DNA of 32,000 nucleotides, taken from NCBI GenBank assembly GCA_000145985.1, contig CP002098.1, forward strand, positions 904,182 through 936,181. The letters are read 5' to 3'. Source of the DNA: Ignisphaera aggregans DSM 17230. Lineage in GTDB: Archaea > Thermoproteota > Thermoprotei_A > Sulfolobales > Ignisphaeraceae. Shown piece after piece: positions 2,561-27,247 of the stretch. The translations under genes and the position numbers were made by a program. Below the pieces are notes generated by a model. The model was not told where the DNA came from. It saw only the letters and a list, made by a program, of their open reading frames with translations, and did not search any database. Each line of letters starts with the position of its first letter. The stretch's first letter is position 1.

Positions 2561-2763
2561 ATTGTAGATCTTCTAATTATGACATTCATATATATTCCAT
2601 AAAGTGCTATGATTAGACCTACTAAAGAGATTGCATATATTATTAATAGAAATGGAATATCAATATATATCCTTAGTGATATTATTGCTAAAAGAGTTAT
2701 AAAACATATGAGTATCAATAGAAATCCTGTTATTAGGAGAAACCTAGGGCTATTTATTTGCAT
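2548..2763 (-). CDS. hypothetical small membrane protein (2 predicted TM helices)
   Basis: 71-aa ORF whose ATG (2763) lies 14 nt inside the end of the upstream ABC ATPase gene, an operon-style overlap. It has two long hydrophobic stretches and no recognisable family. AT-rich genomes generate such ORFs by chance, and its 3' end overlaps the plus-strand C/D sRNA. Confidence 0.3.
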   Translation of the reverse strand: MQINSPRFLLITGFLLILICFITLLAIISLRIYIDIPFLLIIYAISLVGLIIALYGIYMNVIIRRSTINSV

Positions 2764-3712: not shown

Positions 3713-3713
3713 G

Positions 3714-4676: not shown

Positions 4677-4677
4677 A

Positions 4678-7169: not shown

Positions 7170-7237
7170 TAAATACCTAATATTAAGCTTTATAAAAAAG
7201 TGTTTTGTTTTTGGTTAAAAAATGTTTTGGAGTATAT
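7170..7237 (-). promoter_or_regulatory. binding-protein/permease intercistronic region with oligo-T tract and T6-TATAAAG element
   Basis: Minus-strand read after the binding-protein stop: CATTTTTTAACC (T6 = 7217-7222), then CTTTTTTATAAAGC (7187-7200) about 20-25 nt upstream of the permease ATG. This is consistent with partial termination after the binding-protein gene and/or an internal promoter. It is inferred from sequence only. Confidence 0.3.
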
Positions 7238-10009: not shown

Positions 10010-10098
10010 ACAGATACCACCTTTAAGTGTATTAACTATTGAAAGAGCTTTATAACTTTTTAAGAGAGCTTTACGGTAATAATATTTATTGTGGGGAG

Positions 10099-10713: not shown

Positions 10714-10715
10714 AG

Positions 10716-11678: not shown

Positions 11679-11722
11679 ATAAATCCTAGATACATACCTC
11701 TCTCCAACTTATATTGCTTACT

Positions 11723-11775
11723 ATAAACAGTTTACTAGAAAACCTTATATACTCAAGCCTAGGCTATGTAAACAG
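11723..11775. promoter_or_regulatory. candidate BirA operator elements flanking the bioY TATA box
   Basis: The palindrome TAAAC-A-GTTTA (11724-11734) and a repeat of TAAACAG (11724-11730 and 11769-11775, the latter as TGTAAACAG) flank the TATA-like CCTTATATAC (11743-11752). TGTAAAC/GTTTACA are the half-site cores of the bacterial BirA operator. The arrangement differs from the classical site, so this is tentative. Confidence 0.3.
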
Positions 11776-11790
11776 ATCATGTGGTAAATT

Positions 11791-12441
11791 ATGAGTGGGT
11801 TAACTAGACATACCTCCTATTTAATCATGTCCTTCAGCATTGTTGCTATGGCTATAGGCTCATGGATCTCCTTCTATGTGGGTCCAATACCATATACATT
11901 CCAAAACCTTGGCGTTGTATTAACAGGGCTTTTATTACCACCGAGATATTCCTTTAGTGCTATAGGGCTATATCTACTGCTTATAGCTATCGGTATGCCT
12001 ATAGCTGCTGGTTTTAGGGGTGGTATCCATGTTTTGTATGGATATACAGCTGGATATCTATGGGGATTCCTGCTATCTGCACCACTCCTATCTCTAGTCT
12101 CTAGACGGTATCTCAAAGCTGTTGGGAAGAGCCTTGGAGATATAGATAGGAAGAATGTTGCTATACTCCTTGCACTAGTCTCTATAGCTATGATACCTAC
12201 ATATATTCTTGGGGTGGCTGTTCTCTACATATATATATTCAAATTGCCAACACTGTATAGATGGGCTGAAGCTATATCTCTATACATAGGTATTCCAAAT
12301 ATATCGCCAATAGCTATGAGCTTTATAGTAGGTATGCTTGTTTTTCTACCCCAGGATATATTCATGGATCATCTTATAGCTATTCTAGTTGCTAGAGAGA
12401 TTTATAGGTATCTGTATAGGAGGGGTATAGCTGTTGGGTAG
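11791..12441 (+). CDS. bioY: biotin ECF transporter S component
   Basis: PYTFQNLGVVLTGLLLPPRYS...IGMPIAAGFRGGIHVLYGYTAGYLWGFLLSAP parallels the BioY pattern (TLQ-L-V-LAG..LG......G.P.F.G..GG...L.GPTGGYL.GF). It has six hydrophobic helices and sits next to birA. Confidence 0.85.
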   Translation: MSGLTRHTSYLIMSFSIVAMAIGSWISFYVGPIPYTFQNLGVVLTGLLLPPRYSFSAIGLYLLLIAIGMPIAAGFRGGIHVLYGYTAGYLWGFLLSAPLLSLVSRRYLKAVGKSLGDIDRKNVAILLALVSIAMIPTYILGVAVLYIYIFKLPTLYRWAEAISLYIGIPNISPIAMSFIVGMLVFLPQDIFMDHLIAILVAREIYRYLYRRGIAVG

Positions 12442-13681
12442 AGCTATAATTGTTAGAGATATGTATATAGAGAATATCTATGGGGATAAGATCTTAGATC
12501 CCATAACATTTGAGGTTGGTGAAGGCGATATAGCTCTCATCTATGGTGATTGCGGATCTGGTAAGAGTCTCCTCCTCAAATCTATAGCTGGTATAATACA
12601 TGCTCTATATCCTGGGTTAAAGATCTATGGAGATATATATGTATATGGATATAGACCTATAGAGGCTCTAGAAAAGGGATACACCATCTATATACCACAA
12701 GACATATCCCTCACAATGATAACAACATCTCTTTTAGAAGAGCTAGAGTTCTATGGCATAGATATAGATGACGATATCCTTAGAATGCTTAGTGCTGTAG
12801 ATATAGCTTCGAGACCCATAAACACTTTGTCCGCTGGAGAGAGATATAGAGTAATGCTTGCTCTAGCTCTACATCTAGGGAAAAAGATTGTTCTCATCGA
12901 TGAGCCTTCGGCATATATAGACAGCATATCTATGCCAAAGATAGTCTCTGAGCTAAGGAGATATGCAAAAGAGAATAACGTTACAATAATATTTACTGAC
13001 CATAGAAAAGAGCTATTTGGAGAATATATAGATCTCTATATAGGGCTTGGAGATAAGACGTTTTGTATAGCTGTTGAACCGCATGAAGATTATGATGATA
13101 GCGATATAGTTGTTAGACTTAGCAATATATCTTTTAGCTATAGAGATAGAGAGATTGTTAGAGATCTATCCATAGATATTTGGAGAGGTGATATTGTAGC
13201 TATAGTTGGATCTAATGGCTCTGGAAAAACAACTCTTATCAAACTCATGCTCGGCTTATTAAAGCCTAGGAGAGGTAGGGTTGAGAAACACTATAGAGAT
13301 GCTTTCTATATTCCTCAGCTAACTAGCTATTGGATGATTGGAAGAGATCTCATATCTATACTAAGGGAGTTTGGTATCAATGAGAAGATTCTTATATATA
13401 CGGGTTTATGGGAGAAACATAGCTTTACCCCATATAGCTTAAGTCTAGGTGAAGTGAGGAGATTTGGCATATATATGGCTATATATAGCGATAGAGATAT
13501 TGTTTTTATAGATGAAGCTCTACTCGGACTTGACACAAAATCTATTGAATGTATAAAGAGTTTATTTGAGTGGACTAGAAAAAAGAAGACTAAGGCCATA
13601 GTATTCTCTACACATGACAAAAACCTGGCATATAGCTTCAATCCGACAAAGGTTATAGACCTTGATAAAAACAGTAGCTAG
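12434..13681 (+). CDS. ECF transporter ATPase, fused tandem A-A' (compact, 415 aa)
   Basis: Two ABC cassettes. The first has GDCGSGKS, LSAGERYR, IVLIDEPSAYID and TDHR. The second has GSNGSGKTT, LSLGEVRR, IVFIDEALLGLD and STHD. The TTG start (12434) overlaps the bioY stop; an alternative ATG is at 12461. Confidence 0.8.
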   Translation: MGRAIIVRDMYIENIYGDKILDPITFEVGEGDIALIYGDCGSGKSLLLKSIAGIIHALYPGLKIYGDIYVYGYRPIEALEKGYTIYIPQDISLTMITTSLLEELEFYGIDIDDDILRMLSAVDIASRPINTLSAGERYRVMLALALHLGKKIVLIDEPSAYIDSISMPKIVSELRRYAKENNVTIIFTDHRKELFGEYIDLYIGLGDKTFCIAVEPHEDYDDSDIVVRLSNISFSYRDREIVRDLSIDIWRGDIVAIVGSNGSGKTTLIKLMLGLLKPRRGRVEKHYRDAFYIPQLTSYWMIGRDLISILREFGINEKILIYTGLWEKHSFTPYSLSLGEVRRFGIYMAIYSDRDIVFIDEALLGLDTKSIECIKSLFEWTRKKKTKAIVFSTHDKNLAYSFNPTKVIDLDKNSS

Positions 13682-14258
13682 AAAAATCCTCCCCATAACT
13701 ACTATAGCATTATTACTCATTCTACAGATACTCTATAGAGATATTATCAGCTCTATAGCTATACTCATAGCAATAATTACAATAGTCTATATCTTTAGGA
13801 TGCAGATGGTGAAGACATATATTAGCATTATAGCTATATTCATAGCCATCTACACCACCATAACGATAATCCTCCAGATACTGGCTCTAAACACAGTAGA
13901 TATATATGGTATTGCCATGATATCTATAAACATATTAACAATATCTCTAGGGATGATGACAATTATAACAATTCTCTATAGGCATATAGCAAAAACATTT
14001 ATATGTAGAGAGAAACTAAGGCTATTGCTCATAGCGCTAAAAGCTCTTGAGGGATTACCACAGGTATTAAAAGAGGCTATAGCTATAAACAAGATAAACT
14101 ATAGATCAAGAAAATCACTTAGAAACATCTTTGTATTCTATACAAGGATTATAATGATGATAAATATAAATGTTTTAAACAATTTGATACAATACTATGA
14201 AAGCCTAGTAACAATGATACCAAGTGCAATGAAATGCCATAAGAGATATACCATGTGA
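13662..14258 (+). CDS. putative ECF transporter T component (short, 198 aa)
   Basis: Membrane protein whose TTG start overlaps the ATPase 3' end by 20 nt. LKEAIAINKINYRSRKSL aligns by eye with the coupling-helix region FSEAITTIRLKYGRRGLF of the clearer EcfT at 26486-27247. It is much shorter than typical EcfT, so the call rests mainly on position. Confidence 0.45.
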   Translation: MIKTVARKILPITTIALLLILQILYRDIISSIAILIAIITIVYIFRMQMVKTYISIIAIFIAIYTTITIILQILALNTVDIYGIAMISINILTISLGMMTIITILYRHIAKTFICREKLRLLLIALKALEGLPQVLKEAIAINKINYRSRKSLRNIFVFYTRIIMMININVLNNLIQYYESLVTMIPSAMKCHKRYTM

Positions 14259-14275: not shown

Positions 14276-15016
14276 TCAGTATATATCTTTAAGCTTAATT
14301 TTCATGGCTATTACCATGGTTAAAATTATGGCTAATGCTAATAGATATACTAGTGATGTTAGTAGATCTATGTTGTAGTTAACTCTGCATGATGCACCAA
14401 TGATATTTGCTATATGTGTTGATGGTAAAACTAATGCGAGGTATCTAAATGGTTCTGGGATATACGATGGTGGATAGTATATTGGTGCTAGGAATACTAA
14501 TATGAAGGAAATAACATTGCTTGTTATAACTATTGTATTATAGTCTTTTGAGCTAAGTACTATGGCTATAGTGAAACCTATTGCTGTAGCTATATACCAA
14601 CCAAGTATTAACCCTATTAAGAATAGCAGTATATTGGCTATACTTAGGATGTTGAGTATATAGAGTGTTATTATCATGATTAGTGTAGCTGGAAATGTCT
14701 GTATAGCATTGGAGAGTATCTGTCCTAGGAAATACTCTATAGATGTTATCGGCTTTGACAATAAAACTTCTATTCTTTTAAGCAGTTTATCTACAGCTAG
14801 ATCTTGACAAGCTGTAACCATGGAATTTGATAGTAATGTAAATATCAGTGTACCTATAGCTATAAAAGATCTATTGTATTCAGATGCTATGAGATAGAAT
14901 GGTACAAGTATTGAGAATGGAAGAAATAGTGTTAGATATAAATAGAATATCTTGTTCTTAAGCATCCACTTTGCATATAGCATACCTATGGCGTAGACCC
15001 TAAGAAGATTCACCAA
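14276..15016 (-). CDS. ABC-2 type exporter permease
   Basis: 246 aa with six hydrophobic helices and an ABC2_membrane-like layout. The start (TTG 15016 or GTG 15013) overlaps the stop of the upstream ATPase. Confidence 0.75.
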   Translation of the reverse strand: MVNLLRVYAIGMLYAKWMLKNKIFYLYLTLFLPFSILVPFYLIASEYNRSFIAIGTLIFTLLSNSMVTACQDLAVDKLLKRIEVLLSKPITSIEYFLGQILSNAIQTFPATLIMIITLYILNILSIANILLFLIGLILGWYIATAIGFTIAIVLSSKDYNTIVITSNVISFILVFLAPIYYPPSYIPEPFRYLALVLPSTHIANIIGASCRVNYNIDLLTSLVYLLALAIILTMVIAMKIKLKDIY

Positions 15017-15914
15017 ATCTCAACACCTCTATATATGACTCCTCAAGACTTGGTCTATCAATACTAAAATCAGCTATATACTCTCTATACATCTCAATAA
15101 ACCGCATTATCTTTATAAGCTCATCATCACTACGAACAAATGCCTCTATCTCTGAGTCTCTATAGCTATATCTATCAATTGGCAGAGCATCTATATACTT
15201 ATTGCTAACAAGTTTTATCTTTACCCTATACCTATATCCAAGTCTATTAATAAGATCCTTTGTAGTTCCATTAAAAATAAGACTACCTCTATAGAGAACC
15301 AATACTCTATCAGCATATTCTTTAACTTCATCGAGATAGTGGGTTACAAGTATAGCTATAGCATCATATTTCTTGAGGTAATCCATAACAATACTCCACA
15401 TCCTCATCCTCATCTCGGGGTCTAGACCAACTGTAGGTTCATCGAGAAACAATATCTGTGGAGAACCTATGAATGCTTGTGCAAGAAGTACCCTCTTCTT
15501 ATATCCACCAGATAGATACACTATCTTTTTATCAGCATAGTCACTAAGCATAAAATCCTCTATCAGTCTATTAACCTCTTTCCTAGCTTCACCAAACCTT
15601 AAACCTTTGATCAATGCAAGATAGTATAGATACTCCCTAACCGATAGATATTCATGTAGCTGTGCCTCCTGAGGCATAACACCAAATAAACCCTTTAATC
15701 TAGCTTCATCAGGGGTCATACCATTTATAGATATATAGCCTTTTGAAGGACTAATCTCACCATCCATAACTCTAATAAGAGATGTCTTGCCAGCACCATT
15801 AGGACCTGCTAATATAACTAATCTCTCTCCATAAAGCCTAAAGCTAACACTTCGAAGAGCAATAACACCACCTCTATATATCTTCCAAACATCATCAACA
15901 TATATCTCAATCAC
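15000..15914 (-). CDS. ABC-2 type exporter ATP-binding protein
   Basis: Walker A GPNGAGKTS, signature LSGGYKKR, Walker B LFLDEPTVGLD, H-loop THY, plus a C-terminal accessory domain typical of DrrA/ABC-2 ATPases. GTG start at 15914 with GAGGTG (15922-15927) 7 nt upstream. Confidence 0.9.
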   Translation of the reverse strand: MIEIYVDDVWKIYRGGVIALRSVSFRLYGERLVILAGPNGAGKTSLIRVMDGEISPSKGYISINGMTPDEARLKGLFGVMPQEAQLHEYLSVREYLYYLALIKGLRFGEARKEVNRLIEDFMLSDYADKKIVYLSGGYKKRVLLAQAFIGSPQILFLDEPTVGLDPEMRMRMWSIVMDYLKKYDAIAILVTHYLDEVKEYADRVLVLYRGSLIFNGTTKDLINRLGYRYRVKIKLVSNKYIDALPIDRYSYRDSEIEAFVRSDDELIKIMRFIEMYREYIADFSIDRPSLEESYIEVLRFGESS

Positions 15915-15941
15915 ACTAAAACACCTCTTAGGTAATACCCA

Positions 15942-16835
15942 TCAATAGATGTTCTTTCTACGTGTTCTCAATGCTATATAGAGATATAATACCTTAACCT
16001 TTTTGTCTATAGCATCTCTAAGGCTTTGTATCTCTATGTATGGTATTGCTGATGCTTCTATATAGCTTTTAACTCTATTGATATGATTCCTTATATCTCT
16101 ATAAACATTATCTATATCTACATATATCTCTTCACCTGTTTCAATATCGAAGAACACAATCGATCCTCTATCCAATGGTTTCTCCACCTCCCATCTATAT
16201 ATTGTAAATATTGTTGCTAGAGGTGTCTCCAGGGTTCTAGCTGTATTGATAAGCTGTATGAAGCTCTCTATACTATGTCCATAGTCTATAAATAGTATTA
16301 TAGAATCTATCCTCATTCTCCCCCTTCTTAATAGCTTTACAACTTCATCTAACCTACTTGTCTCTGTCAATGCTCCTCTACATATCGTGTTGACTATAAG
16401 TTCTAGTGCCTCCCTCCCCCTCAACCCATGATATATACTAGCCTTGGCACCCAGAAGCATAAGTGTTATACTGTCTTCCAATCTATGTGCAGTCTCTAGA
16501 ACTAGAGATGCTGTATATATCATAGAACTAATCTTTTCCCCTATAGCCATAGACCTCGATATATCTAGAGCTATAAGCACCTTTGACTTGTGTTCAACTG
16601 TGAAGAGCTTTGTGTATAGCTTTATATCATTTGTATATGGATCTATAGATCTTAGCGATATATTCCAATCTATATATCTATAGTCATCCTCTGGCTGATA
16701 CTCCCTAAAATCTCTATACTCAATCCCTGGACCAAGAAAACGTGTTTTATTTGTTCCTAGCTCTAGTGAAGTTGCATGTATTGTTCCAAGTCTGGAATAA
16801 GCTCTTGCTAATCTACATATATCGCTATTCTGCAA
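15942..16835 (-). CDS. DUF58 family protein (vWA-like, MoxR partner)
   Basis: GPGIEYRDFREYQPEDDYRYIDWNISLRS matches the DUF58 signature (G-x-G-x-E-F...R-x-Y-x-x-G-D-D-x-R-x-I-D-W). It is followed by a vWA-like beta-strand with DxSxS (LIALDISRSM). The TTG start overlaps the upstream gene's stop by 11 nt. Confidence 0.8.
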   Translation of the reverse strand: MQNSDICRLARAYSRLGTIHATSLELGTNKTRFLGPGIEYRDFREYQPEDDYRYIDWNISLRSIDPYTNDIKLYTKLFTVEHKSKVLIALDISRSMAIGEKISSMIYTASLVLETAHRLEDSITLMLLGAKASIYHGLRGREALELIVNTICRGALTETSRLDEVVKLLRRGRMRIDSIILFIDYGHSIESFIQLINTARTLETPLATIFTIYRWEVEKPLDRGSIVFFDIETGEEIYVDIDNVYRDIRNHINRVKSYIEASAIPYIEIQSLRDAIDKKVKVLYLYIALRTRRKNIY

Positions 16836-17676
16836 TAACTATATCACCAACCTTCAATATACTCTTAATCGAGATATCTATATATTCACCTGGAAGCTCC
16901 TCAAAAACCATACTACTCTTTAGAAGATCATAGACATCCTTAGAAGCACCTAACTCTTTTAACATATCCTCAATAGTTTTAGCATAAGATATATCAAGTC
17001 TATTGAATCTATATGGATCTCTAAACTCATATAGCTTCTCATAGATCTTAGAAAAACCTAGCTTCTTCAATGCTGATAGAAATGATATCCAGTTTATATA
17101 TCCCTTCGAACCCCTTACCCTATAGATTCTCACCCCAAAGTCTCTACTCGATACAACTATATCTTCAGCATATCCCAGCACTCCCCTAGATCTACTAACA
17201 ACAAGTTTTCCAATAATATCACTAATCCTATACTGAGGCCTATCACCAGTTGGCAGACCCCTAAAATTTGCTTCTCTAGGTGTCGATAAAAGAACTATTT
17301 TAATCAGCTCCTCTCTATCACCTCTAACAATCTTTGAAATATCTATAAGATCTATCTCATCTACCTCTATAAACCCCTTCACAACCTCTGCCTCTCTATC
17401 AATAGACTTCATAGGTATATCGATCCCCTCCCTCCTAGCAATAGAAATTAATACCTCTAGAGGCTCAGAACCCCTAGCGACACCTCTAGACATTAGAATA
17501 TCTATAAGCTTCTCCACATCCACCCCAATATCATTTATCTTCAACCTATATACAGCTATAATCCTGGGAACACCCAACGAAATATCAAGATCCTTTACAT
17601 ATCCATAGAAAAGCCCTTCACTATCATATATAGCAGCATCTCTTATCTCATCCAAACTATACATCTTTCTAGACAT
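16825..17676 (-). CDS. hypothetical protein with two PRC-barrel-like repeats
   Basis: IRDAAIYDSEGLFYGYVKDLDISLGVPRIIAV and IIGKLVVSRSRGVLGYAEDIVVSSRDFGVRIYRV both fit the PRC-barrel pattern (G-x-x-V-x-x-x-x-G-x-x-x-G-x-V-x-D-[ILV]...). The C-terminal third is helical. I prefer ATG 17676 (MSRKMYSL); the ORF track extends to a TTG at 17697. Confidence 0.45.
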   Translation of the reverse strand: MSRKMYSLDEIRDAAIYDSEGLFYGYVKDLDISLGVPRIIAVYRLKINDIGVDVEKLIDILMSRGVARGSEPLEVLISIARREGIDIPMKSIDREAEVVKGFIEVDEIDLIDISKIVRGDREELIKIVLLSTPREANFRGLPTGDRPQYRISDIIGKLVVSRSRGVLGYAEDIVVSSRDFGVRIYRVRGSKGYINWISFLSALKKLGFSKIYEKLYEFRDPYRFNRLDISYAKTIEDMLKELGASKDVYDLLKSSMVFEELPGEYIDISIKSILKVGDIVIAE

Positions 17677-17728
17677 TGCCAATAGCCCTCTCCACAATAC
17701 TACTTTGAGATATTAAATACTATTGAGC

Positions 17729-17744
17729 AAAACTTATATATTTC
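17729..17744. promoter_or_regulatory. shared TATA-like element between the divergent PRC/DUF58 and MoxR operons
   Basis: AAACTTATATATTTC is centred at ~17738. This is about 27 nt upstream of ~17765 (the MoxR ATG candidates are 17768 and 17780) and, read on the minus strand, about 27 nt upstream of ~17711 (leader to ATG 17676). Confidence 0.35.
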
Positions 17745-17779
17745 TTTCTATAACTATTACAAGGACTATGTGTATTGCC

Positions 17780-18841
17780 ATGGCTATGAAAATAGATATT
17801 GATGATATAAGGAGAAGTATTGAGGAGATATATAGACAGCTGAACAAAGCTGTTATTGGGTATGAAGAGGAGAAGAGGATTATTATAGCATCTCTTCTTG
17901 CTAATGGCCATGTACTTCTAGAGGGTGTTCCAGGTATAGCTAAGACAACTCTTGCAAAAGCCCTAGCTAGATGTCTTGGTTTATCTGAATCTACAGCCCA
18001 TGTATATAACGATATTATCTACAAAGGTTTTTCAAGAATACAATTTACTCCAGATCTCATGCCCGCGGATATAATTGGTACAATGGTTTTTAATCCATCT
18101 ACAAAGAGTTTTGATATTCGTTTAGGACCTGTGTTTACATATATACTTCTTGCAGATGAGATAAACAGGGCTATACCAAGGACACAGTCAGCTCTTCTCC
18201 AAGCTATGCAGGAGAGAGAGGTTACTATAGGTGGAAAAACATATCCCCTAGAGATTAGATCTCAGGGCAAGTTCTTCTTTGTTATAGCTACTCAGAATCC
18301 TATTGAGCAGGAGGGTACCTATCCCCTACCAGAGGCACAGATAGATAGATTTATGGTTAGAGTTATAATGGGCTATCCTAAGACTCTAGAGGATGAGAGA
18401 AAGATTCTTGAGCTCCATATGAAGAGAGTTTCAGAACCTGTAGAAGATGTTGAGAAGATTCTAGATCCTATCTGGATTGTAATGGCACAGGAGTTTATAG
18501 CTAAAAATATTGAGATTGATAGTATAGCTATGAACTATATTGTTAAGATTGTTAGAGCTACAAGACCAGAGATAAATGAGGGGATATCTAAATACTTTGA
18601 ACTTGGTGTAAGTCCTAGAGCAGCTATAGCGCTTATGAGAATGGCAAAGGTTTTTGCAGTTATGAGAGGATCCCAGAGGGTGACAATTGATGATATTGAT
18701 CACGTTCTTTTCTATGTATTTAACCACAGGGTTATACCGAATATGGAGACTGTTATTGATAGGGGAGGAGGTTTTAAGGCTAGAATAGATGTAGTTAGAG
18801 AGGGTCTTGAAATAGCTAAAAAGTTTGCAAGGGGTGGCTAG
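17780..18841 (+). CDS. MoxR-family AAA+ ATPase
   Basis: Walker [13 protein letters not shown], Walker [10 protein letters not shown], and the MoxR signature [22 protein letters not shown]. The C-terminal lid contains [10 protein letters not shown] prefer ATG 17780 (MAMKIDIDD); the first 19 codons of the track ORF lie in the promoter region. Confidence 0.9.
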
Positions 18842-19753
18842 ATGCTAGAGTTTATAGAGGTTTATAAGAGGTATGGAAAGATAGAGGCTCTTAAGGGGGT
18901 AAGCTTTAGAGTTAATGGAAAATTTGTAGCAGCTCTACTAGGTCCTAATGGAGCTGGAAAGACAACTATTATGAAGATAGCTATGGGGTTTGTAAAACCT
19001 GATAGGGGTAGTGTTAGAGTATTGTCTATGGATCCATTTGTAGAGGAGGATAGGGTTAGAAGTCTTATTGGATATCTACCTGAAAAACCTATCTATCCAC
19101 TAAAGATAAGGGTGAAGGATCTTCTAAACTATTTAGCTAGAATTAGAGGTGTTGGTGAAAACGATGTTAATAGGGTTCTAAAGCTTGTAGGACTTGAAGA
19201 CTATTCTGATAGGGAGATAAAATCACTTTCAAGAGGATATCTACAGAGACTTGGACTTGCACAAGCACTTCTCGGAGATCCCCAACTCTTATTGCTGGAC
19301 GAACCTACAGCAAATCTCGATCCTATGGCTAGGCAAGAAATACTAAGACTCCTCAACATTCTTCACAGAGATCTAGATGTATCTATGGTAATTTCATCCC
19401 ATATAATACCAGAGCTACAAGAGATTGCAAACTATGCTATATTTATAGATAGAGGTGTAATTCTTGACCATGGATCTCTTGAGGATCTTGCAAAGAGATA
19501 TAATGTAAAGTCGATTATGTTTATAGAGACAACAAATACTAGAAAACTTATATCAGAATTATCATCTATTGAGTTTGTAGAGGGTATAAATATTGTTGAT
19601 AATGGAATAGAGATTAAGATTGATAGCAGAAATATTAAAGCTGTTGAGAGATATCTTGATGAACTTATTAAAGAGGGGATTATTAGGAGCTATAGATATA
19701 AAACAGCTCAGCTAAGTGATATATATGAAAAACTTGCTTCAGGTAAACATTAA
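18842..19753 (+). CDS. ABC-2 type exporter ATP-binding protein (second copy)
   Basis: Walker A GPNGAGKTT, signature LSRGYLQR, Walker B LLLDEPTANLD, H-loop SSH, plus a C-terminal accessory domain. The ATG directly abuts the MoxR stop (TAG-ATG). Confidence 0.9.
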   Translation: MLEFIEVYKRYGKIEALKGVSFRVNGKFVAALLGPNGAGKTTIMKIAMGFVKPDRGSVRVLSMDPFVEEDRVRSLIGYLPEKPIYPLKIRVKDLLNYLARIRGVGENDVNRVLKLVGLEDYSDREIKSLSRGYLQRLGLAQALLGDPQLLLLDEPTANLDPMARQEILRLLNILHRDLDVSMVISSHIIPELQEIANYAIFIDRGVILDHGSLEDLAKRYNVKSIMFIETTNTRKLISELSSIEFVEGINIVDNGIEIKIDSRNIKAVERYLDELIKEGIIRSYRYKTAQLSDIYEKLASGKH

Positions 19754-20522
19754 GAGGGTCTACATATACCTAGTTTATATTACAAATAAAACACTTCGAT
19801 GGCTAATAGCTCTAATAATCGCCATCACATTTATGTACAGTCTAATGATTTTAAGCGCAATACCATCTATAGCCGTAGGCCCTACTACACCTTCCTATGA
19901 CATATATCCAGGTACAATCATACTTCTAATGGTTATAGAGATGGTCATAGCTTTCATACCATCAACAGTTATAGATGAGATAGAGAGAGGTGAAACAACA
20001 CTCTTTCTTGCACATTCATTGAAAAGAAATGAATATCTATTTGCATGGATATTAGCACTACTTCTATTCCCATTAGCACTCATATTATCACACATTCTAA
20101 CTCTAGTCATCATCTATCCCCCACAAAATATTGCATTAAAGCTCATAGAGAATATGTTATATATGTCTATACAGATAGTAGAACTCATAGTTCTACTATT
20201 CAGTATATCAATTATAACTAGGAGGAAGAATCTATCAGTAGTAATAGGCATTATTATTGCAGTACCACTTCTATTCCTATTACCATTTGCTGGAAGCATG
20301 CTTCAATCTACAAATGATCCAATCTGGTACACTCTACTTGTCCCCATAGCCATATTAAAGCCCTATACATATCATATCTTTACAATTACATCTACATCCT
20401 ATCCATATCCATATAGATCTATCCAGCTTCCAAGTACTACAACAATATATGTAATTGCTATAGTGCTAACCATAGCCATAGCTATAGCTACTTTTATAAG
20501 GTTTATGAAGATAGATCTATAG
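19725..20522 (+). CDS. ABC-2 family permease (second copy)
   Basis: Six hydrophobic helices. The loop VIDEIERGETTLFLAHSLKRNEYLFAWI fits the E-x-E-x-G-T...S-[RK] motif of ABC2_membrane permeases. It overlaps the ATPase 3' end; the alternative GTG start is at 19716. Confidence 0.7.
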   Translation: MKNLLQVNIKRVYIYLVYITNKTLRWLIALIIAITFMYSLMILSAIPSIAVGPTTPSYDIYPGTIILLMVIEMVIAFIPSTVIDEIERGETTLFLAHSLKRNEYLFAWILALLLFPLALILSHILTLVIIYPPQNIALKLIENMLYMSIQIVELIVLLFSISIITRRKNLSVVIGIIIAVPLLFLLPFAGSMLQSTNDPIWYTLLVPIAILKPYTYHIFTITSTSYPYPYRSIQLPSTTTIYVIAIVLTIAIAIATFIRFMKIDL

Positions 20523-21419
20523 GTGATAGACATGCTTAGACCTCTACTAATTATATCAATAGCAACAGTAATAACGATACTAATAGTATTTGCTATAACA
20601 ATAAAATTCTCTCCCGCAGTATACCAAGCATATACAGCAATATCAATGTCGAAGATTCTCGCTATATACCCTAACAACAATAGTATATGTATGCTTTTCT
20701 CAATACAGCTTAGATCTACACAAAGTAGTATTAATCAATTAGATGGCTATAGAGCTATGTATTCATTAAAAATATATCCAATTAATGATCCAACAGGAAC
20801 TGTTTTAAATGGGGTTAGAAGCATAGATATCTATGGATTAACACAACAGACAGCACTATACATAGAATCCTCAATAAAACTTACTTCACCAATTTCATTA
20901 GTTATAGACAGAGAAACCTATACAAAGGTTCTCGCCTTGTTGAAGAGGTTTAGCTTGCTACATACAACTGTACAACATGTTAATCGTAGTGGAAATATGA
21001 TTGCAGTAGAATACAATTTTATTCCACCTATAGAGGTAGTCGTAGCGAATATATGTATGGATAGAAATACGGATCTATCAAATCATCAAATCTATCAACA
21101 TACAACTTGGATTCTATCTATTCATTACAATATAACTGTTACCAATAACACATTGGGAGCACTTATAGAGCTTCTAAATAGTGCAGATACGTCTATAGTA
21201 AATATGGTTCAAGCTGTAATACAAAATCTTTTCTATTTAGATAACACTCTAGTTGTATATCTCAGTCCATCTAAAATGCAGATAGGGAGAGCTATAGCAC
21301 TACTCATAATATTTATCTCTGGTATTGCTATACACAGAATGTATGAACCTCACGAATATAGATCTATTGATTCGTTGATTAGAAGGATAAAGAGGTTTTT
21401 CTATAGGTTAAAAACCTAA
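20523..21419 (+). CDS. hypothetical membrane protein (N- and C-terminal TM helices flanking a ~230-aa extracytoplasmic domain)
   Basis: It starts (GTG 20523 or ATG 20532) immediately after the permease stop. TM helices lie at about res 6-28 and 262-283, followed by a basic tail (RRIKRFFYRLKT). I recognise no family motif. Confidence 0.55.
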   Translation: MIDMLRPLLIISIATVITILIVFAITIKFSPAVYQAYTAISMSKILAIYPNNNSICMLFSIQLRSTQSSINQLDGYRAMYSLKIYPINDPTGTVLNGVRSIDIYGLTQQTALYIESSIKLTSPISLVIDRETYTKVLALLKRFSLLHTTVQHVNRSGNMIAVEYNFIPPIEVVVANICMDRNTDLSNHQIYQHTTWILSIHYNITVTNNTLGALIELLNSADTSIVNMVQAVIQNLFYLDNTLVVYLSPSKMQIGRAIALLIIFISGIAIHRMYEPHEYRSIDSLIRRIKRFFYRLKT

Positions 21420-22350
21420 GGATTGTATATAGGACTCCAGCTATAGCCAGTATATATGGTGTTAATGGTTTTGACATCTCTATCTCTTTATACATAGATA
21501 TCTCCACATTTATATTTGCTATAATTGTATTTATCTTAGATGCTATCGTATTTAAAGTATCTGAAAGCCTGTCAATACTCTCAACGGTAAATTGTTCTCC
21601 ACCTGTCTTACTAGCTATAAGCTTTGTCTCATCTATACCCCTTGGATCCTCACCTATAAAGACTGTGTATATTGGTATTCCAAGTTTGTTATACTCATCT
21701 AGAAGTGGTCTATAGTCCTGAGGATCCCCGGGTAGTCCATCAGTTATAAATACAGTGAATGCAGATACATTTAGTTCTCTATATGGTCTAAGCCATGAAA
21801 GTGCTGTTGAGAGTGCAAAACTATACATAGTTCCTCCACCAGCCTCCATACGATCTATAACCATATCGATATAAGATCTATTGGGTGTTGGTGGTATAGC
21901 ACTTTTTATACTATGACTAAATTCTACTAATCCTATATCAATAGTATTATTGAATAGTGATACCATTGTCCTAAGAGCATATTTAACGCTATCCATGTTA
22001 TCCGCCATACTACCCGATGTATCAACTATTATTACTACAGGTGTCCTAGCATTGAATGATAGTGATGATATTGATGATGACTCTATAGGGATTCTAACAT
22101 ATTCAACAATGCTTATACCTGCTAATGCTACTGCTAATAGAGATGCTATAGCAATCTTTATAAATAGTGTAGAGAGTCTAGAGCTTCTCCTCTGTCTCTC
22201 TCCTCTATAGAAGGATAGATATGTATGGCCCACTCTATACAGCTTTCTATATATAGGCCTTGGGAAAGCTCTATGTGTATAGAATACTATGGCTATCAAT
22301 ATAAGCCCTATCACTATTCCCATCAGCGGATTTTGGATTGTTATCCTCAT
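21379..22350 (-). CDS. vWA domain membrane protein (BatA-like)
   Basis: Two N-terminal TM helices, then a vWA fold with MIDAS residues VVIIVDTSGSMADN (DxSxS), GGGTMY and FITDG, and a C-terminal TM. ATG 22350 is preceded by GGGGGTG and lies 1 nt after the upstream stop. Confidence 0.8.
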   Translation of the reverse strand: MRITIQNPLMGIVIGLILIAIVFYTHRAFPRPIYRKLYRVGHTYLSFYRGERQRRSSRLSTLFIKIAIASLLAVALAGISIVEYVRIPIESSSISSLSFNARTPVVIIVDTSGSMADNMDSVKYALRTMVSLFNNTIDIGLVEFSHSIKSAIPPTPNRSYIDMVIDRMEAGGGTMYSFALSTALSWLRPYRELNVSAFTVFITDGLPGDPQDYRPLLDEYNKLGIPIYTVFIGEDPRGIDETKLIASKTGGEQFTVESIDRLSDTLNTIASKINTIIANINVEISMYKEIEMSKPLTPYILAIAGVLYTILRFLTYRKTSLSF

Positions 22351-22351
22351 G

Positions 22352-23284
22352 CTACACCCCCTCAATTATCGATGCTATAAATAGCACTATAGAGATTATT
22401 ATAGCTATATATGTAGGTGTAAAGTCGTTTCTATAGATATACACCTCTGTTCTACCAAATGCTTTTAGCGATGATACTATGGATTCTCTATAGATATGCT
22501 CTGATACATCTATAGCAACATCTTCTCCAGCTCTATAGCTAGGAACATCTATTAGTGGTATAGAGAATATATTTGCTACATCCCTCAATCTCTGAGCCCT
22601 AGAGTCATCGCCTATGAGGACTATTACCAAGGCAATATCTCTAGATTTAACAAACTCGATAGCATTCTCTATAGGAGTTCCATAGTTTTGTGCACCATCT
22701 GTTATAACTATAATTGCTGTTGGTAGACCTAGAGATGCATAGTTAGCTCCATATATAATTGCATCACCTATAGCTGTATACTTCTCAAATTCAATACTAT
22801 TTAGCATAGATAGACAATCTTCAACAGATATATTCATACCCACTCCTCTACACAGCATCCTAGGTGTAGAGCTGAATACAGCTATAGAAACAATATCCCC
22901 TCTCCTCTGGGCAATCTCAAGAATATTTCTAGTAACATCTAATGCTATACTATACCTCGATCCATATCCATATTGCATACCCATGCTCTTAGATATGTCG
23001 AGCAATATCAAGATATTTGTAACATTTAGATATGTCTCAAGAGCATTGCTATACTCTATTGGTATAACAGTAATAGTCTCGATATATGGCTGAGACATCG
23101 CTATTACTATTGCTATTAACGCGAATATCTTTATTATTGAGAGAAGGTGTATAGCTCTCAAATCCATATCTAGGATAAGCCTCCTAGCTACAGTCTCTCT
23201 ATTCTTCCTAGTTTTCATATATATAGCTAATAGAGATGCTGTTAATGGTATACCTATAGCTATTGCATATGGATTAGAAAACAT
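22352..23284 (-). CDS. vWA domain membrane protein (BatA-like, paralog)
   Basis: The BatA-type N-terminus is MFSNPYAIAIGIPLTASLLAIY. The vWA fold has ILILLDISKSMGMQ (DxSxS), YTAIGDAI and VITDGAQNYG, followed by a C-terminal TM. The start is ambiguous (ATG at 23284, 23296 or 23314; TTG at 23332). Confidence 0.8.
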   Translation of the reverse strand: MFSNPYAIAIGIPLTASLLAIYMKTRKNRETVARRLILDMDLRAIHLLSIIKIFALIAIVIAMSQPYIETITVIPIEYSNALETYLNVTNILILLDISKSMGMQYGYGSRYSIALDVTRNILEIAQRRGDIVSIAVFSSTPRMLCRGVGMNISVEDCLSMLNSIEFEKYTAIGDAIIYGANYASLGLPTAIIVITDGAQNYGTPIENAIEFVKSRDIALVIVLIGDDSRAQRLRDVANIFSIPLIDVPSYRAGEDVAIDVSEHIYRESIVSSLKAFGRTEVYIYRNDFTPTYIAIIISIVLFIASIIEGV

Positions 23285-23288
23285 GATT

Positions 23289-24236
23289 CTAGTCATCTGA
23301 TTCTGGAGGAACATATCCAGCACCACCACCAATACCAGATGGTCCTGACCCTTGCTGTTGGTTTTGAGAATATCTCTTTAGGAGTTCTTCAATGAAATTT
23401 CTAGTTTGTGCTATATCTCTAGAGAGCACACCTTTCGCCTCAATACTATTTATAGAAGCTCTACATTCATTAATAGAACTCTGTATATCTGGTCTATTCA
23501 ACAACGTGTTAATAGTCTCTATATCTATAGAGCTATTCTTTCTAATAGAACATAGAGTATTTAGAAGATCTCTATATGTTGCAACTAATCTCATTATCTT
23601 CTCAAAATTGTTATATGAATCTAGTACAGATCTAACTATATTCCTTGAATTTTCAACAATAATACTGTGGTTCTTTGATAGAAGCTTCTCCCTATCAACG
23701 TTAGAGAGATATAAATATGATTCTGAAAGCCTATATATAACACCTATAACAGTTCTATTAATTTGAAAATACTTTGATAGTGCCTCATCAATATTACAGC
23801 TACGTACATCTACAAGAATTTCTCTCATAATAGGAATAGTGGTGTCTATATCACTAAGAGAGTCTACTATATCTATAGAAGCATTTGATATATATAGATA
23901 GGTCTCTGCAGATCTAGCCAACAACTCTCCTAGCGATCCTGGGGGAAGGTATAGACCTATGGAATACTGCTGAAGATTTTCAACGATAGATACTATCTCA
24001 TCTCTAGATGGAGCTATATAGTCCATACCCCTAGAAACATTTTTAAGTGCATAGGAACTACGGTTTAGATATGCAATAGCATAGACATACTCCTTTAGAA
24101 TATCCCTAATACTACTACTAGAAATAGTCATAGGTGTGTTTCTGACAAAGGTAAACCATATGAATATCACCGATATTGCTATAGCTATACAGAGTATAAT
24201 TAAAGAAATATTCCTCTTATCCAAACGGATAAACAC
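23289..24236 (-). CDS. hypothetical N-terminally anchored helical protein with Gly-rich acidic tail
   Basis: GTG start. One TM (ISLIILCIAIAISVIFIWFTFV), then ~260 aa of predicted helical sequence rich in I/L/S/N/R, ending QQQGSGPSGIGGGAGYVPPESDD. It is the first gene of the vWA operon and has no recognisable family. Confidence 0.55.
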   Translation of the reverse strand: MFIRLDKRNISLIILCIAIAISVIFIWFTFVRNTPMTISSSSIRDILKEYVYAIAYLNRSSYALKNVSRGMDYIAPSRDEIVSIVENLQQYSIGLYLPPGSLGELLARSAETYLYISNASIDIVDSLSDIDTTIPIMREILVDVRSCNIDEALSKYFQINRTVIGVIYRLSESYLYLSNVDREKLLSKNHSIIVENSRNIVRSVLDSYNNFEKIMRLVATYRDLLNTLCSIRKNSSIDIETINTLLNRPDIQSSINECRASINSIEAKGVLSRDIAQTRNFIEELLKRYSQNQQQGSGPSGIGGGAGYVPPESDD

Positions 24237-24484
24237 CTTATTATCACCACAAAATACTATTCATATAGATTAAAGCTATGCTAAGCTTATAATCTTAACC
24301 CCACCATGACTTATATAGGTAATGGTTGATATTCTAACTATATATAGAATAGACCTAGGGTATCTCTATAGACAGTATCTTAATGATTATTGCCATAAGG
24401 TATTTATATTCTTATGATCTAGAACCAAGTTCTATAAAGATTTATATATCTAAGAGAGTCGGTGTAGAGAGGTGGGTGAAGTAC

Positions 24485-25081
24485 ATGTCTCATAGTATAT
24501 CTGTATCCAGACCCCGATACCAGGGCTTTAGAATATCCATACTTAGAGTATCCCTAACAGCATCTCTAACTGCTATAGCAATAGTTCTCCACATATTTAA
24601 GATACCTTTTCCTATAGCTCCATTCCTAAAATTTGATGCTACAGGTATTCCCTTAGCAGTTATAGCTCTGTATAGTGTTGGTGATGCCGCTGTAGCATCT
24701 CTAGTAGTATTGCCTAGCATTATAGCGTTGGGAGCTGATATTATTGGAGCTTCTATGAAGGTTTTAGCAGAGTTTTCAACATTTGTACCCCTTGCACCCA
24801 CATATAGTGTTCTACGCAATAGACTCTCTAGGAGGGGGCTCTATATAGTTGCAATAATGGTATCGCTAGCCTCAAGGGTGGGTGTCATGTCTTTGGCAAA
24901 CTATATAGTAACCCCATATTGGCTTGTAATGACGTATTCATGGCCTTATGATAAAGCATATAGAGTTACACTAATGTATCTTCCAGCTATAGCATCATTC
25001 AATGCAATTGTAGCTCTATATGTTGTGCCAATAGCACTATCCATATATATGATTATAGAGCGTCTGGGGATAAAGCTCTAA
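24485..25081 (+). CDS. ECF transporter S component (RibU/ECF_trnsprt-like), substrate unknown
   Basis: HIFKIPFPIAPFLKFDATGIPLAVIAL resembles the RibU-type I-P-x-P-F-L-K-[LF]-D-x-S-x-[IV]-P segment. It has six hydrophobic helices. ATG 24485 is preceded by GAGGTG (24469-24474). The stop overlaps the ATPase ATG (TAATG). Confidence 0.65.
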   Translation: MSHSISVSRPRYQGFRISILRVSLTASLTAIAIVLHIFKIPFPIAPFLKFDATGIPLAVIALYSVGDAAVASLVVLPSIIALGADIIGASMKVLAEFSTFVPLAPTYSVLRNRLSRRGLYIVAIMVSLASRVGVMSLANYIVTPYWLVMTYSWPYDKAYRVTLMYLPAIASFNAIVALYVVPIALSIYMIIERLGIKL

Positions 25082-26502
25082 TGCTAACTGTAGAGAATCT
25101 ATGGTATAGATATCCAAATAGTGATTGGATACTTAGAGGAGTAAATCTGTATCTAGATAATGAAGATATGCTTCTTGTATTGGGTAGGAGTGGATCTGGA
25201 AAATCAACTCTAGCTATAGCTCTAACAGGTATTGGGGTTCATATATATGGAGGTGAAGTGAAAGGGGATATCTATATCAATGGAAAATCTATTGAGAGTA
25301 TATCAAATAGCATAAATAGGTATATAGCTCTAGTGAGTCAAAACCCATATAACCATTTCATTGAGCATAGAGTTAGAGATGATCTCTATGGATATGCAGA
25401 GAGTATCTATGATGAGAAGGAGGCTAGTGCTATTGTTGAAAATATTGTAAAGCTTATGGATATTGAGAATATCTTAGATAGAAAATTTTTTGAGCTCTCT
25501 GGTGGAGAAGCACGGAGAGCTGCTATAGCAAAGGCATTGATATCTAATCCCAGTGTAATAATACTTGATGAACCTCTTATGTGGCTTGATGACACTGGTG
25601 TGGATTCCCTTAGAAAATCTATTAATATGCTTAAACTACTTGGAAAGTCTATTATAGTTTTAGAGCATAGATTTCTACCCCTTCTAGATCTAGCCAATAA
25701 GATATTTATTCTAAGAGATGGAGTGCTTGAGGAGATATCTAAGGATATGCTAAAGCCTAGAGAAATCCCATTGGAATATAATCATAGGAGATATAATGGA
25801 TTTTCTAAGAAGGAAGAGATTCTGAAGATTAGTAACCTATGGTTTAGATATGATGGTGAATGGATTCTTAGAGATGTGAATATGGTTGCACATCGAGGTG
25901 AACTTATAGCTTTATATGGATTGAATGGCTCTGGTAAATCCACATTACTAAAGATTATATCAGGGTATCTAAAGCCATCTAAAGGCTCTATAAAGATTTT
26001 TGGTAGAGCTATATATCTTCCACAGAATATCAATCTCTTCTTTACTGAAGCTACTGTTAGAGAGGAGATAAATGCTATATGTAAATACAATAGAATTGGA
26101 GATAAATGCCTTGGAAAAGCTATTGAGTTGCTAAGAGATTTACAGCTATATATAGATCTAGATATATCTCCATTTAACCTATCATGGGGACAAAAAATAA
26201 GATTAGCTATAGCACTATCAATGCTTATAGACAATGTAAATATTCTACTTTTTGACGAGCCTTTCACAGGTCTTACATACTATGAGAGATACTGTATAGC
26301 CAAGATAATTAACTCTCTTCCAAAGACCAAGATAGTTTCGTTAAGCTCTAGAGACTCTATACATATACTAGATATAGATGCTCTCTATATCCTCAGCAAT
26401 GGCCATCTAGAGAAGGCTAGTATAAGCGATGATCATATCTCTAAGAGTCAAACACTATCACTTGTAAATATATCTAAGAAACTCTATGGCTATGGTGAAT
26501 AG
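25081..26502 (+). CDS. ECF transporter ATPase, fused tandem A-A' (473 aa)
   Basis: Cassette 1 has GRSGSGKST, LSGGEARR, IILDEPLMWLD and LEHR. Cassette 2 has GLNGSGKST, LSWGQKIR and LLFDEPFTGL. Confidence 0.85.
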   Translation: MLTVENLWYRYPNSDWILRGVNLYLDNEDMLLVLGRSGSGKSTLAIALTGIGVHIYGGEVKGDIYINGKSIESISNSINRYIALVSQNPYNHFIEHRVRDDLYGYAESIYDEKEASAIVENIVKLMDIENILDRKFFELSGGEARRAAIAKALISNPSVIILDEPLMWLDDTGVDSLRKSINMLKLLGKSIIVLEHRFLPLLDLANKIFILRDGVLEEISKDMLKPREIPLEYNHRRYNGFSKKEEILKISNLWFRYDGEWILRDVNMVAHRGELIALYGLNGSGKSTLLKIISGYLKPSKGSIKIFGRAIYLPQNINLFFTEATVREEINAICKYNRIGDKCLGKAIELLRDLQLYIDLDISPFNLSWGQKIRLAIALSMLIDNVNILLFDEPFTGLTYYERYCIAKIINSLPKTKIVSLSSRDSIHILDIDALYILSNGHLEKASISDDHISKSQTLSLVNISKKLYGYGE

Positions 26503-27247
26503 ATTGTCTATTGTTAGAAACTTTGCATATCTATTCATATCTTCAGAGAGAAGTAGGGGTTATGGTATTGCTACAAGAATATCTATACCTATAATACTAC
26601 TATCCTCTCTCTCAATAACCTATATACTTCCTGGGAAAGCTCCTTTAGGAATCCATATACTATTTATTCTCATATATGAATTTATATTGATATGGAGATT
26701 TACAAGAATAAAGAACTTTGTTTCATCTCTAACACTAGTATTGATAATAATCGCCATAGGATTTGCAATAAATATATTATCGCCCTATATAGGTAGTCCC
26801 ATAAGTATTGATCCCCTATCACTAATTGTTTATAGTGCTAGAATGGCTGGAATAATCATTGCTCTCTCAATGATATTCCAATTGATATCATTGAGGGAGA
26901 TAGTCTATATAGCAGAGAGACTAGGGCTTTCAAAACTATCCTCTATAATAACTATAGCATTCTCACAACTACCACTAACAGCAATACAGTTCTCTGAGGC
27001 TATTACAACTATAAGACTAAAATATGGTAGGAGAGGTTTGTTTCTAGCGATAAAGCCTCTAATAATAGAGACAATACTTAACAGTAGATCTATTGCAGAA
27101 TCACTATATCTATATGGTTTGCCAAAGATACAAAAACCAATATTGTTTAATCCTCGTAGAGATTTTCCACTACTAATATCATCTATAGTAGTATCGATAA
27201 CACCTATTGTAATCCCGTTAGAAGTGTATATTCAACCCCTTGGCTAA
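26486..27247 (+). CDS. ECF transporter T component (EcfT/CbiQ family)
   Basis: 253-aa polytopic protein overlapping the ATPase 3' end. The coupling-helix-like segments are SEAITTIRLKYGRRGLF and SRSIAESLYLYGL (A-x-x-x-R/G motifs). Confidence 0.7.
   Translation: MAMVNRLSIVRNFAYLFISSERSRGYGIATRISIPIILLSSLSITYILPGKAPLGIHILFILIYEFILIWRFTRIKNFVSSLTLVLIIIAIGFAINILSPYIGSPISIDPLSLIVYSARMAGIIIALSMIFQLISLREIVYIAERLGLSKLSSIITIAFSQLPLTAIQFSEAITTIRLKYGRRGLFLAIKPLIIETILNSRSIAESLYLYGLPKIQKPILFNPRRDFPLLISSIVVSITPIVIPLEVYIQPLG

Follow-up and report, generated by a model that had tools for sequence, protein, structure and literature searches.

The 32,000-nucleotide (nt) stretch of the Ignisphaera aggregans DSM 17230 genome analysed here, which we call the window, holds eleven genes, p1 to p11, between positions 14276 and 24236. 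They code for a MoxR AAA+ ATPase (p5), a DUF58 protein (p3), a predicted double PRC-barrel protein (p4), two membrane proteins with a von Willebrand factor A (vWA) domain (p9 and p10), two ABC ATPases (p2 and p6), each followed by the gene for a six-span membrane protein (p1 and p7), and two orphans (p8 and p11). Of these, p8 is annotated as Igag_0974; by gene order, p1 to p11 would be Igag_0967 to Igag_0977. To judge from sequence comparison, the region 15942-24236 of the window represents, in I. aggregans, a gene cluster that is conserved in Thermoprotei. What is new here is a Bat-like system joined to a predicted double PRC-barrel protein and to one ABC-2 transporter-like module, a combination that, by gene content, is conserved across hyperthermophilic Thermoprotei and for which we can only infer a mechanism.

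We compared the window with eleven related loci, comprising ten members of the same MoxR clade and one partial metagenome locus (L090), and with an outgroup locus (L173). Counts out of twelve refer to the window and the eleven related loci, the outgroup being counted apart; all neighbourhoods were annotated with profiles built from the window proteins. MoxR proteins of the clade are about 345-377 amino acids (aa) long and score at least 397 bits, against about 332 bits for the next group, of 327 aa. Named members of the clade belong to Ignisphaera, Desulfurococcales, Thermofilum and Infirmifilum, and the related loci include Thermofilum pendens, metagenome-assembled genomes (MAGs) of Desulfurococcales and a MAG of Ignisphaera. 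L090 was the one useful locus obtained when metagenomes were scanned with a clade-specific N-terminal fragment of MoxR; it and L175 are partial contigs that cover part of the cluster. The sampled related loci are not near-clonal, as MoxR identity across them is 54-73%. A core formed by p4, MoxR, DUF58, the two vWA genes and p11 was present in every sufficiently long locus and also in the outgroup, in which MoxR is 52% identical and the order is p4-like, MoxR, DUF58, a transglutaminase-core protein, p11-like, vWA, vWA. An earlier note on this DNA had called for such a comparison of neighbourhoods; its outcome is that the MoxR, DUF58 and vWA genes, the PRC-barrel gene, the two orphans and a MoxR-linked ABC module make up one cluster, found at eleven other loci.

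The ABC module, p6 to p8, is intact in nine of the twelve loci (the window, L085, L086, L088, L089, L090, L171, L174 and L175), degenerate in L087 and L172, where the ATPase motifs are lost, and absent from L170 and from the outgroup. It is kept, intact or degenerate, in 11 of the 12 loci, in at least two orders and in three gene arrangements. The module follows MoxR in the window, L085, L086, L088, L089 and L175; it follows DUF58 in L090, where the ATPase is 45% identical to p6 and 30% identical to p2; and it forms a separate unit that converges on the vWA genes in L171 and L174. At both of the loci with a separate unit, a gene of the DtxR/MntR family (Fe_dep_repress; L171:1729-2148 and L174:2425-2847) precedes the ABC ATPase gene by 3-40 nt on the same strand. 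As a background we used 67 generic MoxR loci, mostly bacterial and with at least 5 kb on each side, drawn from among the matches listed in a genome scan with the MoxR alignment; almost all of the matches listed were bacterial, with 38-47% identity. An ABC ATPase gene was found within 1 kb of the generic MoxR gene in one of the 67 loci and within 5 kb in three. Because adjacency in the clade is far above this background, the link between MoxR and the ABC genes is real and clade-specific, and the co-occurrence that the earlier note had wished to see measured against chance exceeds it well.

The same comparison sets p2 and p1 apart. No orthologue of the pair was found in any of the eleven related loci, including the nearest relatives, L085 and L175 (MoxR 71-72% identical); no p1 homologue was present in any of these loci, and only p6-type genes matched p2, with 28-34% identity. 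The presence of two exporters is therefore peculiar to I. aggregans and, as judged from these loci, p2/p1 is a neighbour acquired in this genome only and not a part of the cluster. The earlier note had proposed that MoxR and DUF58 are each coupled to an ABC-2 exporter. The MoxR half of that proposal, with p6 to p8, is conserved; the DUF58 half, with p2/p1, does not extend beyond the window.

The eleven open reading frames lie where the earlier note had placed them, with starts for p4 and MoxR that agree with the public gene calls (ATG 17676 and ATG 17780); the longest reading frames would be 16825-17697 on the minus strand for p4 and 17723-18841 on the plus strand for MoxR (Table 1). Rereading of the junctions bore out the overlaps of 11 nt between p4 and DUF58, 17 nt between p2 and p1 (15000-15016) and 41 nt between the convergent p8 and p9 (21379-21419), as well as the stop codon of MoxR abutting ATG 18842 of p6 and, upstream of p2, a GAGGTG at 15927-15922, 7 nt ahead of the start codon GTG 15914. 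The gene for p2 sits 26 nt downstream of DUF58. The divergent spacer had been credited with a single TATA-like element; its AT-rich, TATA-like stretches face both ways and do not clearly form one. A scan for bacterial promoters and terminators, with bacterial models on an archaeal host, gave matches at or below the shuffle expectation, and a search of the window with Rfam and a tRNA scan gave no Rfam hit and no tRNA.

Table 1. Features of the p1-p11 region, in window positions
Feature	Position	Strand	Length	Description
p1	14276-15016	-		ABC-2 permease, DrrB-like; lineage-specific neighbour outside the conserved cluster
p2	15000-15914	-		ABC ATPase, DrrA-like; lineage-specific neighbour
p3	15942-16835	-		DUF58 protein, ADM27784; vWA-like, putative cytoplasmic partner of MoxR; core component
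p4	16825-17676	-	283 aa	Predicted cytoplasmic double PRC-barrel protein, ADM27785; core component
Divergent spacer p4/MoxR	17677-17779		103 nt	AT-rich TATA-like stretches
p5	17780-18841	+	353 aa	MoxR AAA+ ATPase, AAA_3/MRP type, ADM27786; core component
p6	18842-19753	+		ABC ATPase of the conserved ABC module
p7	19716-20522	+		Six-span membrane protein, probable ABC-2 (NosY/GldF-like) permease
p8	20523-21419	+		Bitopic protein with two transmembrane segments; fast-evolving third gene of the ABC module
p9	21379-22365	-		vWA membrane protein, BatA architecture, putative metal site DTSGS; core component
p10	22352-23332	-		Second vWA membrane protein, same architecture as p9, putative metal site DISKS; core component
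p11	23289-24236	-		Helical protein with N-terminal transmembrane anchor and acidic C-terminus; core component

The convergent 3' overlap of p8 and p9 was noted in the window and in L085, L086, L087, L089, L090, L171, L172 and L174. Of ten related loci with the junction covered, nine have it, at 35-116 nt, regardless of the unit to which the ABC module belongs; the sole covering locus without it is L088, in which the vWA genes are inverted. This recurrence hints at constrained packing or at antisense coupling.

Searches with profile hidden Markov models, also suggested by the earlier note, reproduced nearly all of its domain calls in Pfam. MoxR matches AAA_3 (1.1e-56; 190.7 bits, cut-off 27) and AAA_lid_2 (8.4e-16; 57.9 bits, cut-off 22.7), and p3 matches DUF58 (PF01882; 7.4e-13; 48.6 bits against a gathering cut-off of 23.4). 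Every one of the eleven related loci, and the outgroup too, has a DUF58 orthologue clustered with MoxR; a word-indexed search with DUF58 found one protein. DUF58 also carries DISRS, a motif of the metal-ion-dependent adhesion site (MIDAS) type, and the pattern Dx[ST]xS is kept in nine of ten sequences. There are therefore three MIDAS-type sites in each cluster, one of them cytoplasmic and two predicted to lie outside. No transmembrane (TM) segment was predicted in MoxR, DUF58, p4 or p6.

The match of p4 to Pfam PRC (PF05239) is marginal (9e-5; 22.8 bits against a cut-off of 21.2), and six of nine p4 orthologues match the same family. A profile search with p4 against PDB sequences gave nothing significant. 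An AlphaFold2 (AF2) model built from a 40-member alignment had a mean predicted local distance difference test score (pLDDT) of 94.2 and a predicted template modelling score (pTM) of 0.82. Nearly all of its top Foldseek matches in the PDB are PRC-barrel proteins (CdpB1/CdpB2, RimM, MTH1859, reaction-centre H subunits and CdvA), with probabilities of up to 0.98 and E-values of about 1e-2, the latter because a multi-domain query was compared with single-domain targets. Residues 1-56 and 145-198 of p4 align with each other (hhalign, E 1.5e-5), so that the two segments are homologous and the description of p4 as a double PRC-barrel protein, given in the earlier note, stands on both the internal repeat and the predicted fold. 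The family is small and clade-restricted (59 clusters at 50% identity among 1.84 billion proteins), and its gene adjoins MoxR in all loci. It adds a PRC-barrel family to those in the supplementary text of the published archaeal census, in which p4 does not appear and CdvA (Igag_1520) is the only entry for I. aggregans.

The two ABC ATPases both fall in the DrrA/GldA-like ABC-2 group, under every equivalog cut-off of NCBIfam. For p6 (ABC_tran 9e-26, 91.5 bits), the best NCBIfam match is GldA (TIGR03522), at 184.3 bits against a cut-off of 402.6, and p6 is for that reason not a GldA equivalog. The p6 gene is intact in eight of the eleven related loci; its orthologues are 42-53% identical in four loci as measured by BLASTP, and Walker A, the signature, Walker B and the H-loop are intact in p6 and in four aligned orthologues. 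At L087:11065-11922 and L172:11068-11916, the place after MoxR is kept by an ABC ATPase homologue that has no Walker A, signature motif, Walker B aspartate or H-loop. By its motifs this homologue is a conserved pseudo-ATPase, catalytically dead, and would be a further case of an ABC ATPase that lost its activity and stayed on as a subunit. In both loci, the first of which is a Desulfurococcaceae MAG, the next gene codes for a membrane protein shortened to 198-212 aa. The next protein of the module in the window, p7, has six predicted TM segments and a conserved E..G..LYL...L.R.EY motif, and is probably an ABC-2 permease.

The third protein of the module, p8, consists of an N-terminal TM segment, a middle region of about 190-240 aa (about 224 aa in the window), a second TM segment and a basic tail, predicted to be cytoplasmic. 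It evolves fast, with 13-21% identity between equivalents. A positional equivalent is found in every locus with an ABC module that covers the region (L175 ends before it), and sequence similarity was detected in three. No Pfam match and, by profile search, no significant match to a PDB sequence was obtained for p8; a separate word-indexed search with the p8 profile found three proteins, too few for a deep alignment. As for the lineage-specific pair, p2 (ABC_tran 5.7e-26, 92.2 bits) has drrA as its best NCBIfam match (184.8 bits, below the cut-off of 312), p1 matches ABC2_membrane (1.8e-10; 41.1 bits, cut-off 26.9) and ABC2_membrane_3 (1.1e-10) and has six predicted TM segments, and together they qualify as an ABC-2 exporter. 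With regard to p2/p1 as a duplicate of p6/p7, p2 and p6 are 37% identical and p1 and p7 are without detectable similarity.

Both vWA proteins match Pfam VWA (p9, 1.5e-16, 61.5 bits; p10, 1.1e-10, 42.5 bits; cut-off 23.8), and the DxSxS motifs reported in the earlier note are intact (DTSGS in p9 and DISKS in p10). The MIDAS motif, a putative metal-binding site, is invariant among the orthologues, as DxSGS in nine of nine p9 sequences and DxSxS in nine of nine p10 sequences. Across orthologues the two proteins have the same layout, with TM1, a loop of 17-40 aa that contains 4-11 Lys/Arg, TM2, the vWA domain and a C-terminal TM segment; in p9 the predicted segments are at residues 10-28, 69-87 and 301-319. 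The term BatA-like, which the earlier note had applied to both proteins, holds for this architecture. It does not hold for the families, as no BatA N-terminal domain (PF07584) was found in p9 or p10 at E<=0.01 and NCBIfam VWA_BatA_Lepto scores 24.5 and 30.8 bits against a cut-off of 380.

Upstream of the vWA genes, p11 has a basic N-terminus before a single TM segment and a helical body, without a Pfam match. Its C-terminus (window 23289-23330) is a Gly-rich linker followed by an acidic end, ...GGGAGYVPPESDD. The consensus of the tail is QQGG...G.GAGY..P.SDD-COOH, and the end ...G.GAGY..P.SDD is found in nine of ten aligned clade sequences. Orthologues of p11 are present in all complete loci, with weaker similarity in L087, L170 and the outgroup.

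The positive-inside rule places most of p11, the middle region of p8 and the vWA domains of p9 and p10 on the outer side, consistently across orthologues. The Borrelia protein BB0173, which has three TM segments (7-25, 57-77 and 310-328), was shown by experiment to expose its vWA domain to the periplasm (PMC5700661). From the topology rules and BB0173, we infer that MoxR, DUF58, p4 and the ABC ATPase are cytoplasmic, and that p11, the p8 domain and the MIDAS-bearing vWA domains project into the pseudo-periplasm beneath the S-layer. Since the vWA domains are predicted to be outside, they would make no direct contact with cytoplasmic MoxR.

How, then, might the cluster work? We lean, by somewhat more than an even chance, towards a Bat-like trans-membrane machine with fixed partners, in which the ABC-2 module is a built-in subunit. 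A MoxR hexamer would use DUF58 as a vWA-type adaptor, with p4 acting as a scaffold or targeting subunit, and would remodel the cytoplasmic loops and tails of the membrane subunits. Remodelling would control how a vWA complex outside the cell assembles or which conformation it adopts; the MIDAS sites of that complex may bind the acidic C-terminal tail of p11 or a ligand in the envelope. The ABC-2 module, as a subunit of the kind seen in NosDFY, FtsEX or GldAFG, would have a structural role or transmit mechanical force, and be neither an exporter of cargo nor a client. That the core occurs without any ABC gene and that a sub-lineage keeps a dead ATPase in place make the module better read as an integrated subunit than as a client or an exporter that the system cannot do without.

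Several observations weigh against this interpretation of the cluster. The tail of p11 is a candidate ligand of the neighbouring vWA MIDAS sites in a pairing that is hypothetical, and the p11-like protein of the outgroup is without the acidic tail. The proposed topology rests on the positive-inside rule and on one bacterial homologue. The second ABC-2 permease of the earlier note has six predicted TM segments, and two of seven members of the p7 family scanned match ABC2_membrane_3 (2.8e-5) or ABC2_membrane_2 (4e-4); the p7 of the window itself has no Pfam match. We also considered p7 as a copy of p1 and rejected it, the hhalign comparison of the p7 family with p1 not being significant, a result that counts against the ABC-2 assignment of p7 too. 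The AF2 model of p8 was unusable (pLDDT 34). Finally, the related loci were hand-picked via their MoxR homologues and are not an exhaustive census, and the matches listed in two scans of large collections were mostly generic bacterial MoxR genes.

Moreover, the intact ATPase motifs in nine of the twelve loci fit genuine export of a small substrate equally well. The ABC module could be a real exporter that supplies the pseudo-periplasm with a small molecule, either a metal ion for the MIDAS sites or a reductant, with the vWA proteins and p11 using the supply and MoxR and DUF58 only assembling the complex. This alternative, which deserves serious consideration although we rate it as rather improbable, draws on the conserved motifs of p6 and its four aligned orthologues, on the DtxR/MntR-type gene that directly precedes the ABC ATPase gene in L171 and L174, on the presence of three MIDAS-type motifs per cluster, and on the named hosts, which we take to be anaerobic hyperthermophiles. 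Bat operons have been linked to oxygen tolerance, and a supply of reductant was once proposed for the Bacteroides aerotolerance operon. However, the lineages with a pseudo-ATPase and the members without ABC genes would be without this supply, Pfam and NCBIfam gave no match to a family for substrate binding or metal transport, and the link to a metal repressor is confined to one sub-lineage. The earlier note had instead favoured the ABC-2 exporters or their cargo as clients, with MoxR, DUF58 and vWA proteins as a chaperone that assembles or activates the transporters. There is precedent for such a role, as MoxR/vWA pairs mature specific membrane complexes (NorQD with cNOR and RavA-ViaA with respiratory complexes), and the gene arrangement is suggestive: p6 directly follows the MoxR stop codon, p2 follows DUF58 closely, and p6 to p8 are retained intact in nine of twelve loci through rearrangements. 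We nevertheless consider this model unlikely. The core is found without any ABC gene in L170 and in the outgroup, so that the client there must be something else; L087 and L172 keep the dead ATPase in place; I. aggregans alone has p2/p1; and the vWA domains are predicted to be outside and not on the face of the ABC ATPase.

The two remaining alternatives are weaker still. That an ordinary Bat-like MoxR cluster lies by chance beside unrelated ABC genes might be expected in a transporter-rich window, which holds a peptide ABC importer, a BioY/ECF set, a second ECF-like set and a CDF gene. Chance adjacency is indeed the correct description for p2/p1, found in none of the eleven related loci. It fails for p6 to p8, kept in 11 of 12 loci and in three gene orders against 3 of 67 in the background; the recurrent p8/p9 overlap and the divergence of the sampled loci (54-73% in MoxR) also speak against it, and we judge it very improbable as an account of the whole cluster. 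Least probable of all, in our view, is a role in conflict or defence. MoxR-vWA-centred ternary conflict systems were reportedly described by Kaur, Burroughs, Iyer and Aravind in eLife in 2020, and the MoxR of the window has a faint match to bpMoxR (PF20030; 26.6 bits, below the cut-off of 27). Yet the proteins have neither a beta-propeller nor an effector domain, PADLOC gave no specific match, all partners are membrane or envelope proteins, and the housekeeping context is similar across lineages at 54-73% MoxR identity, unlike that of variable islands.

Among known systems, the closest to the cluster are those of the Bat type in Bacteroidota and in spirochaetes (for example, Borrelia BB0172-BB0176 and Leptospira batABD), which likewise combine an AAA_3/MRP-type MoxR with DUF58 and a tandem pair of membrane vWA proteins in which DxSxS is intact; p9 and p10 share the three-TM layout of BB0173. 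The cluster differs from them in having no Pfam BatA N-terminal domain, scores far under the NCBIfam BatA cut-off and no TPR/BatC-E proteins, and in having instead the predicted double PRC-barrel protein, the acidic-tailed helical anchor protein and the ABC-2 module, in an archaeal host with an S-layer. The function of the Bat proteins has been described as still undemonstrated (PMC3557215). In archaea, Makarova, Galperin and Koonin (2015; PMC5898192) predicted a secretion or membrane-remodelling complex around the euryarchaeal arCOG01314 (DUF4350, GldG-like). That system, too, combines a COG0714 MoxR and vWA proteins with membrane-anchored proteins that carry extracellular domains, is largely extracytoplasmic by prediction and was linked to an auxiliary component of a gliding-type ABC transporter. 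In contrast to it, the eleven window proteins include no DUF4350, Ig-like or S-layer-like protein detectable with Pfam, the ABC ATPase and probable permease found here are not described in PMC5898192, p4 and p11 are absent there, and the present lineage is Thermoprotei.

The ABC-2-type complexes NosDFY, GldAFG and FtsEX act as mechanotransducers or scaffolds. The module described here resembles them in that an ABC ATPase, with GldA as the best NCBIfam match of p6, and a probable ABC-2-like permease are accompanied by a partner with a domain predicted to be extracytoplasmic. ABC2_membrane_2, matched within the p7 family, is presumably the NosY-type family. GldG has an N- and a C-terminal TM segment, a topology shared by p8, for which no homology to GldG or NosD was found in Pfam or among PDB sequences. 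The score of p6 under the GldA cut-off sets the module apart from GldAFG, and we know of no link between NosDFY, GldAFG or FtsEX and MoxR/DUF58. As for p4, its model best resembles CdpB1/CdpB2 (8qzo and 8onw) and RimM, with CdvA lower in the list; in CdpB1/CdpB2 and CdvA, PRC barrels mediate protein-protein assembly at membranes. Unlike these proteins, p4 would consist of two PRC-type repeats with extra helical and beta elements, and its gene is tied to MoxR, not to cdv or ftsZ/sepF. A search of the literature found no description of a MoxR/ABC-2/PRC-barrel cluster, in keeping with the earlier note, which knew of none.

MRP-type MoxR/DUF58/vWA (Bat-like) modules are very widespread and, to our knowledge, have no known client or mechanism. 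The archaeal variant offers fixed partners, namely the PRC-barrel protein, a pair of predicted outward-facing MIDAS domains, a candidate ligand in the acidic tail and the ABC-2 module, which occurs in nature in active, dead and absent states. Together these partners lead to specific, testable predictions of protein-protein interaction. Speculatively, and in our estimate improbably, two ATPases, MoxR acting via DUF58 and p4 and the ABC-2 module acting as a mechanotransducer, could jointly drive binding and release of the p11 tail by the vWA MIDAS sites, as an unrecognised trans-envelope machine of Thermoprotei. If so, the machine would remodel the pseudo-periplasm or the S-layer, and MRP-type MoxR/Bat systems would for the first time have a concrete client and a mechanism.

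Some loci showed further features. The transglutaminase-core protein of the outgroup (L173:9903-11231) lies between DUF58 and the p11-like gene; such a protein is also common in bacterial MoxR-DUF58 clusters. Upstream of p4 in L170 (7320-9069) are a gene for a prepilin peptidase (Peptidase_A24) and one for a 315-aa protein that ends in a CxxC...CxxC zinc-ribbon motif. L175 (JAKCEO010000113.1, 6.3 kb) comes from a MAG labelled Candidatus Geocrenenecus (Nitrososphaerota) and has the same layout, DUF58-p4 / MoxR-ABC-p7, with a MoxR 72% identical to that of the window, which points to horizontal transfer or to a mis-binned Ignisphaera-like contig. The surroundings of the cluster in the window are transporter-rich. 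On the left flank (2750-14258), an SBP_bac_5 protein of 923 aa and a pair of BPD_transp_1 permeases form a peptide ABC importer; BirA and a gene of the translin family also lie there, and BioY is accompanied by a fused double ABC ATPase and by a membrane protein of 198 aa. The right flank (24383-27247) carries the second ECF-like set, in which a double ABC ATPase of 473 aa occurs with a membrane protein of 232 aa and a further protein of 253 aa.

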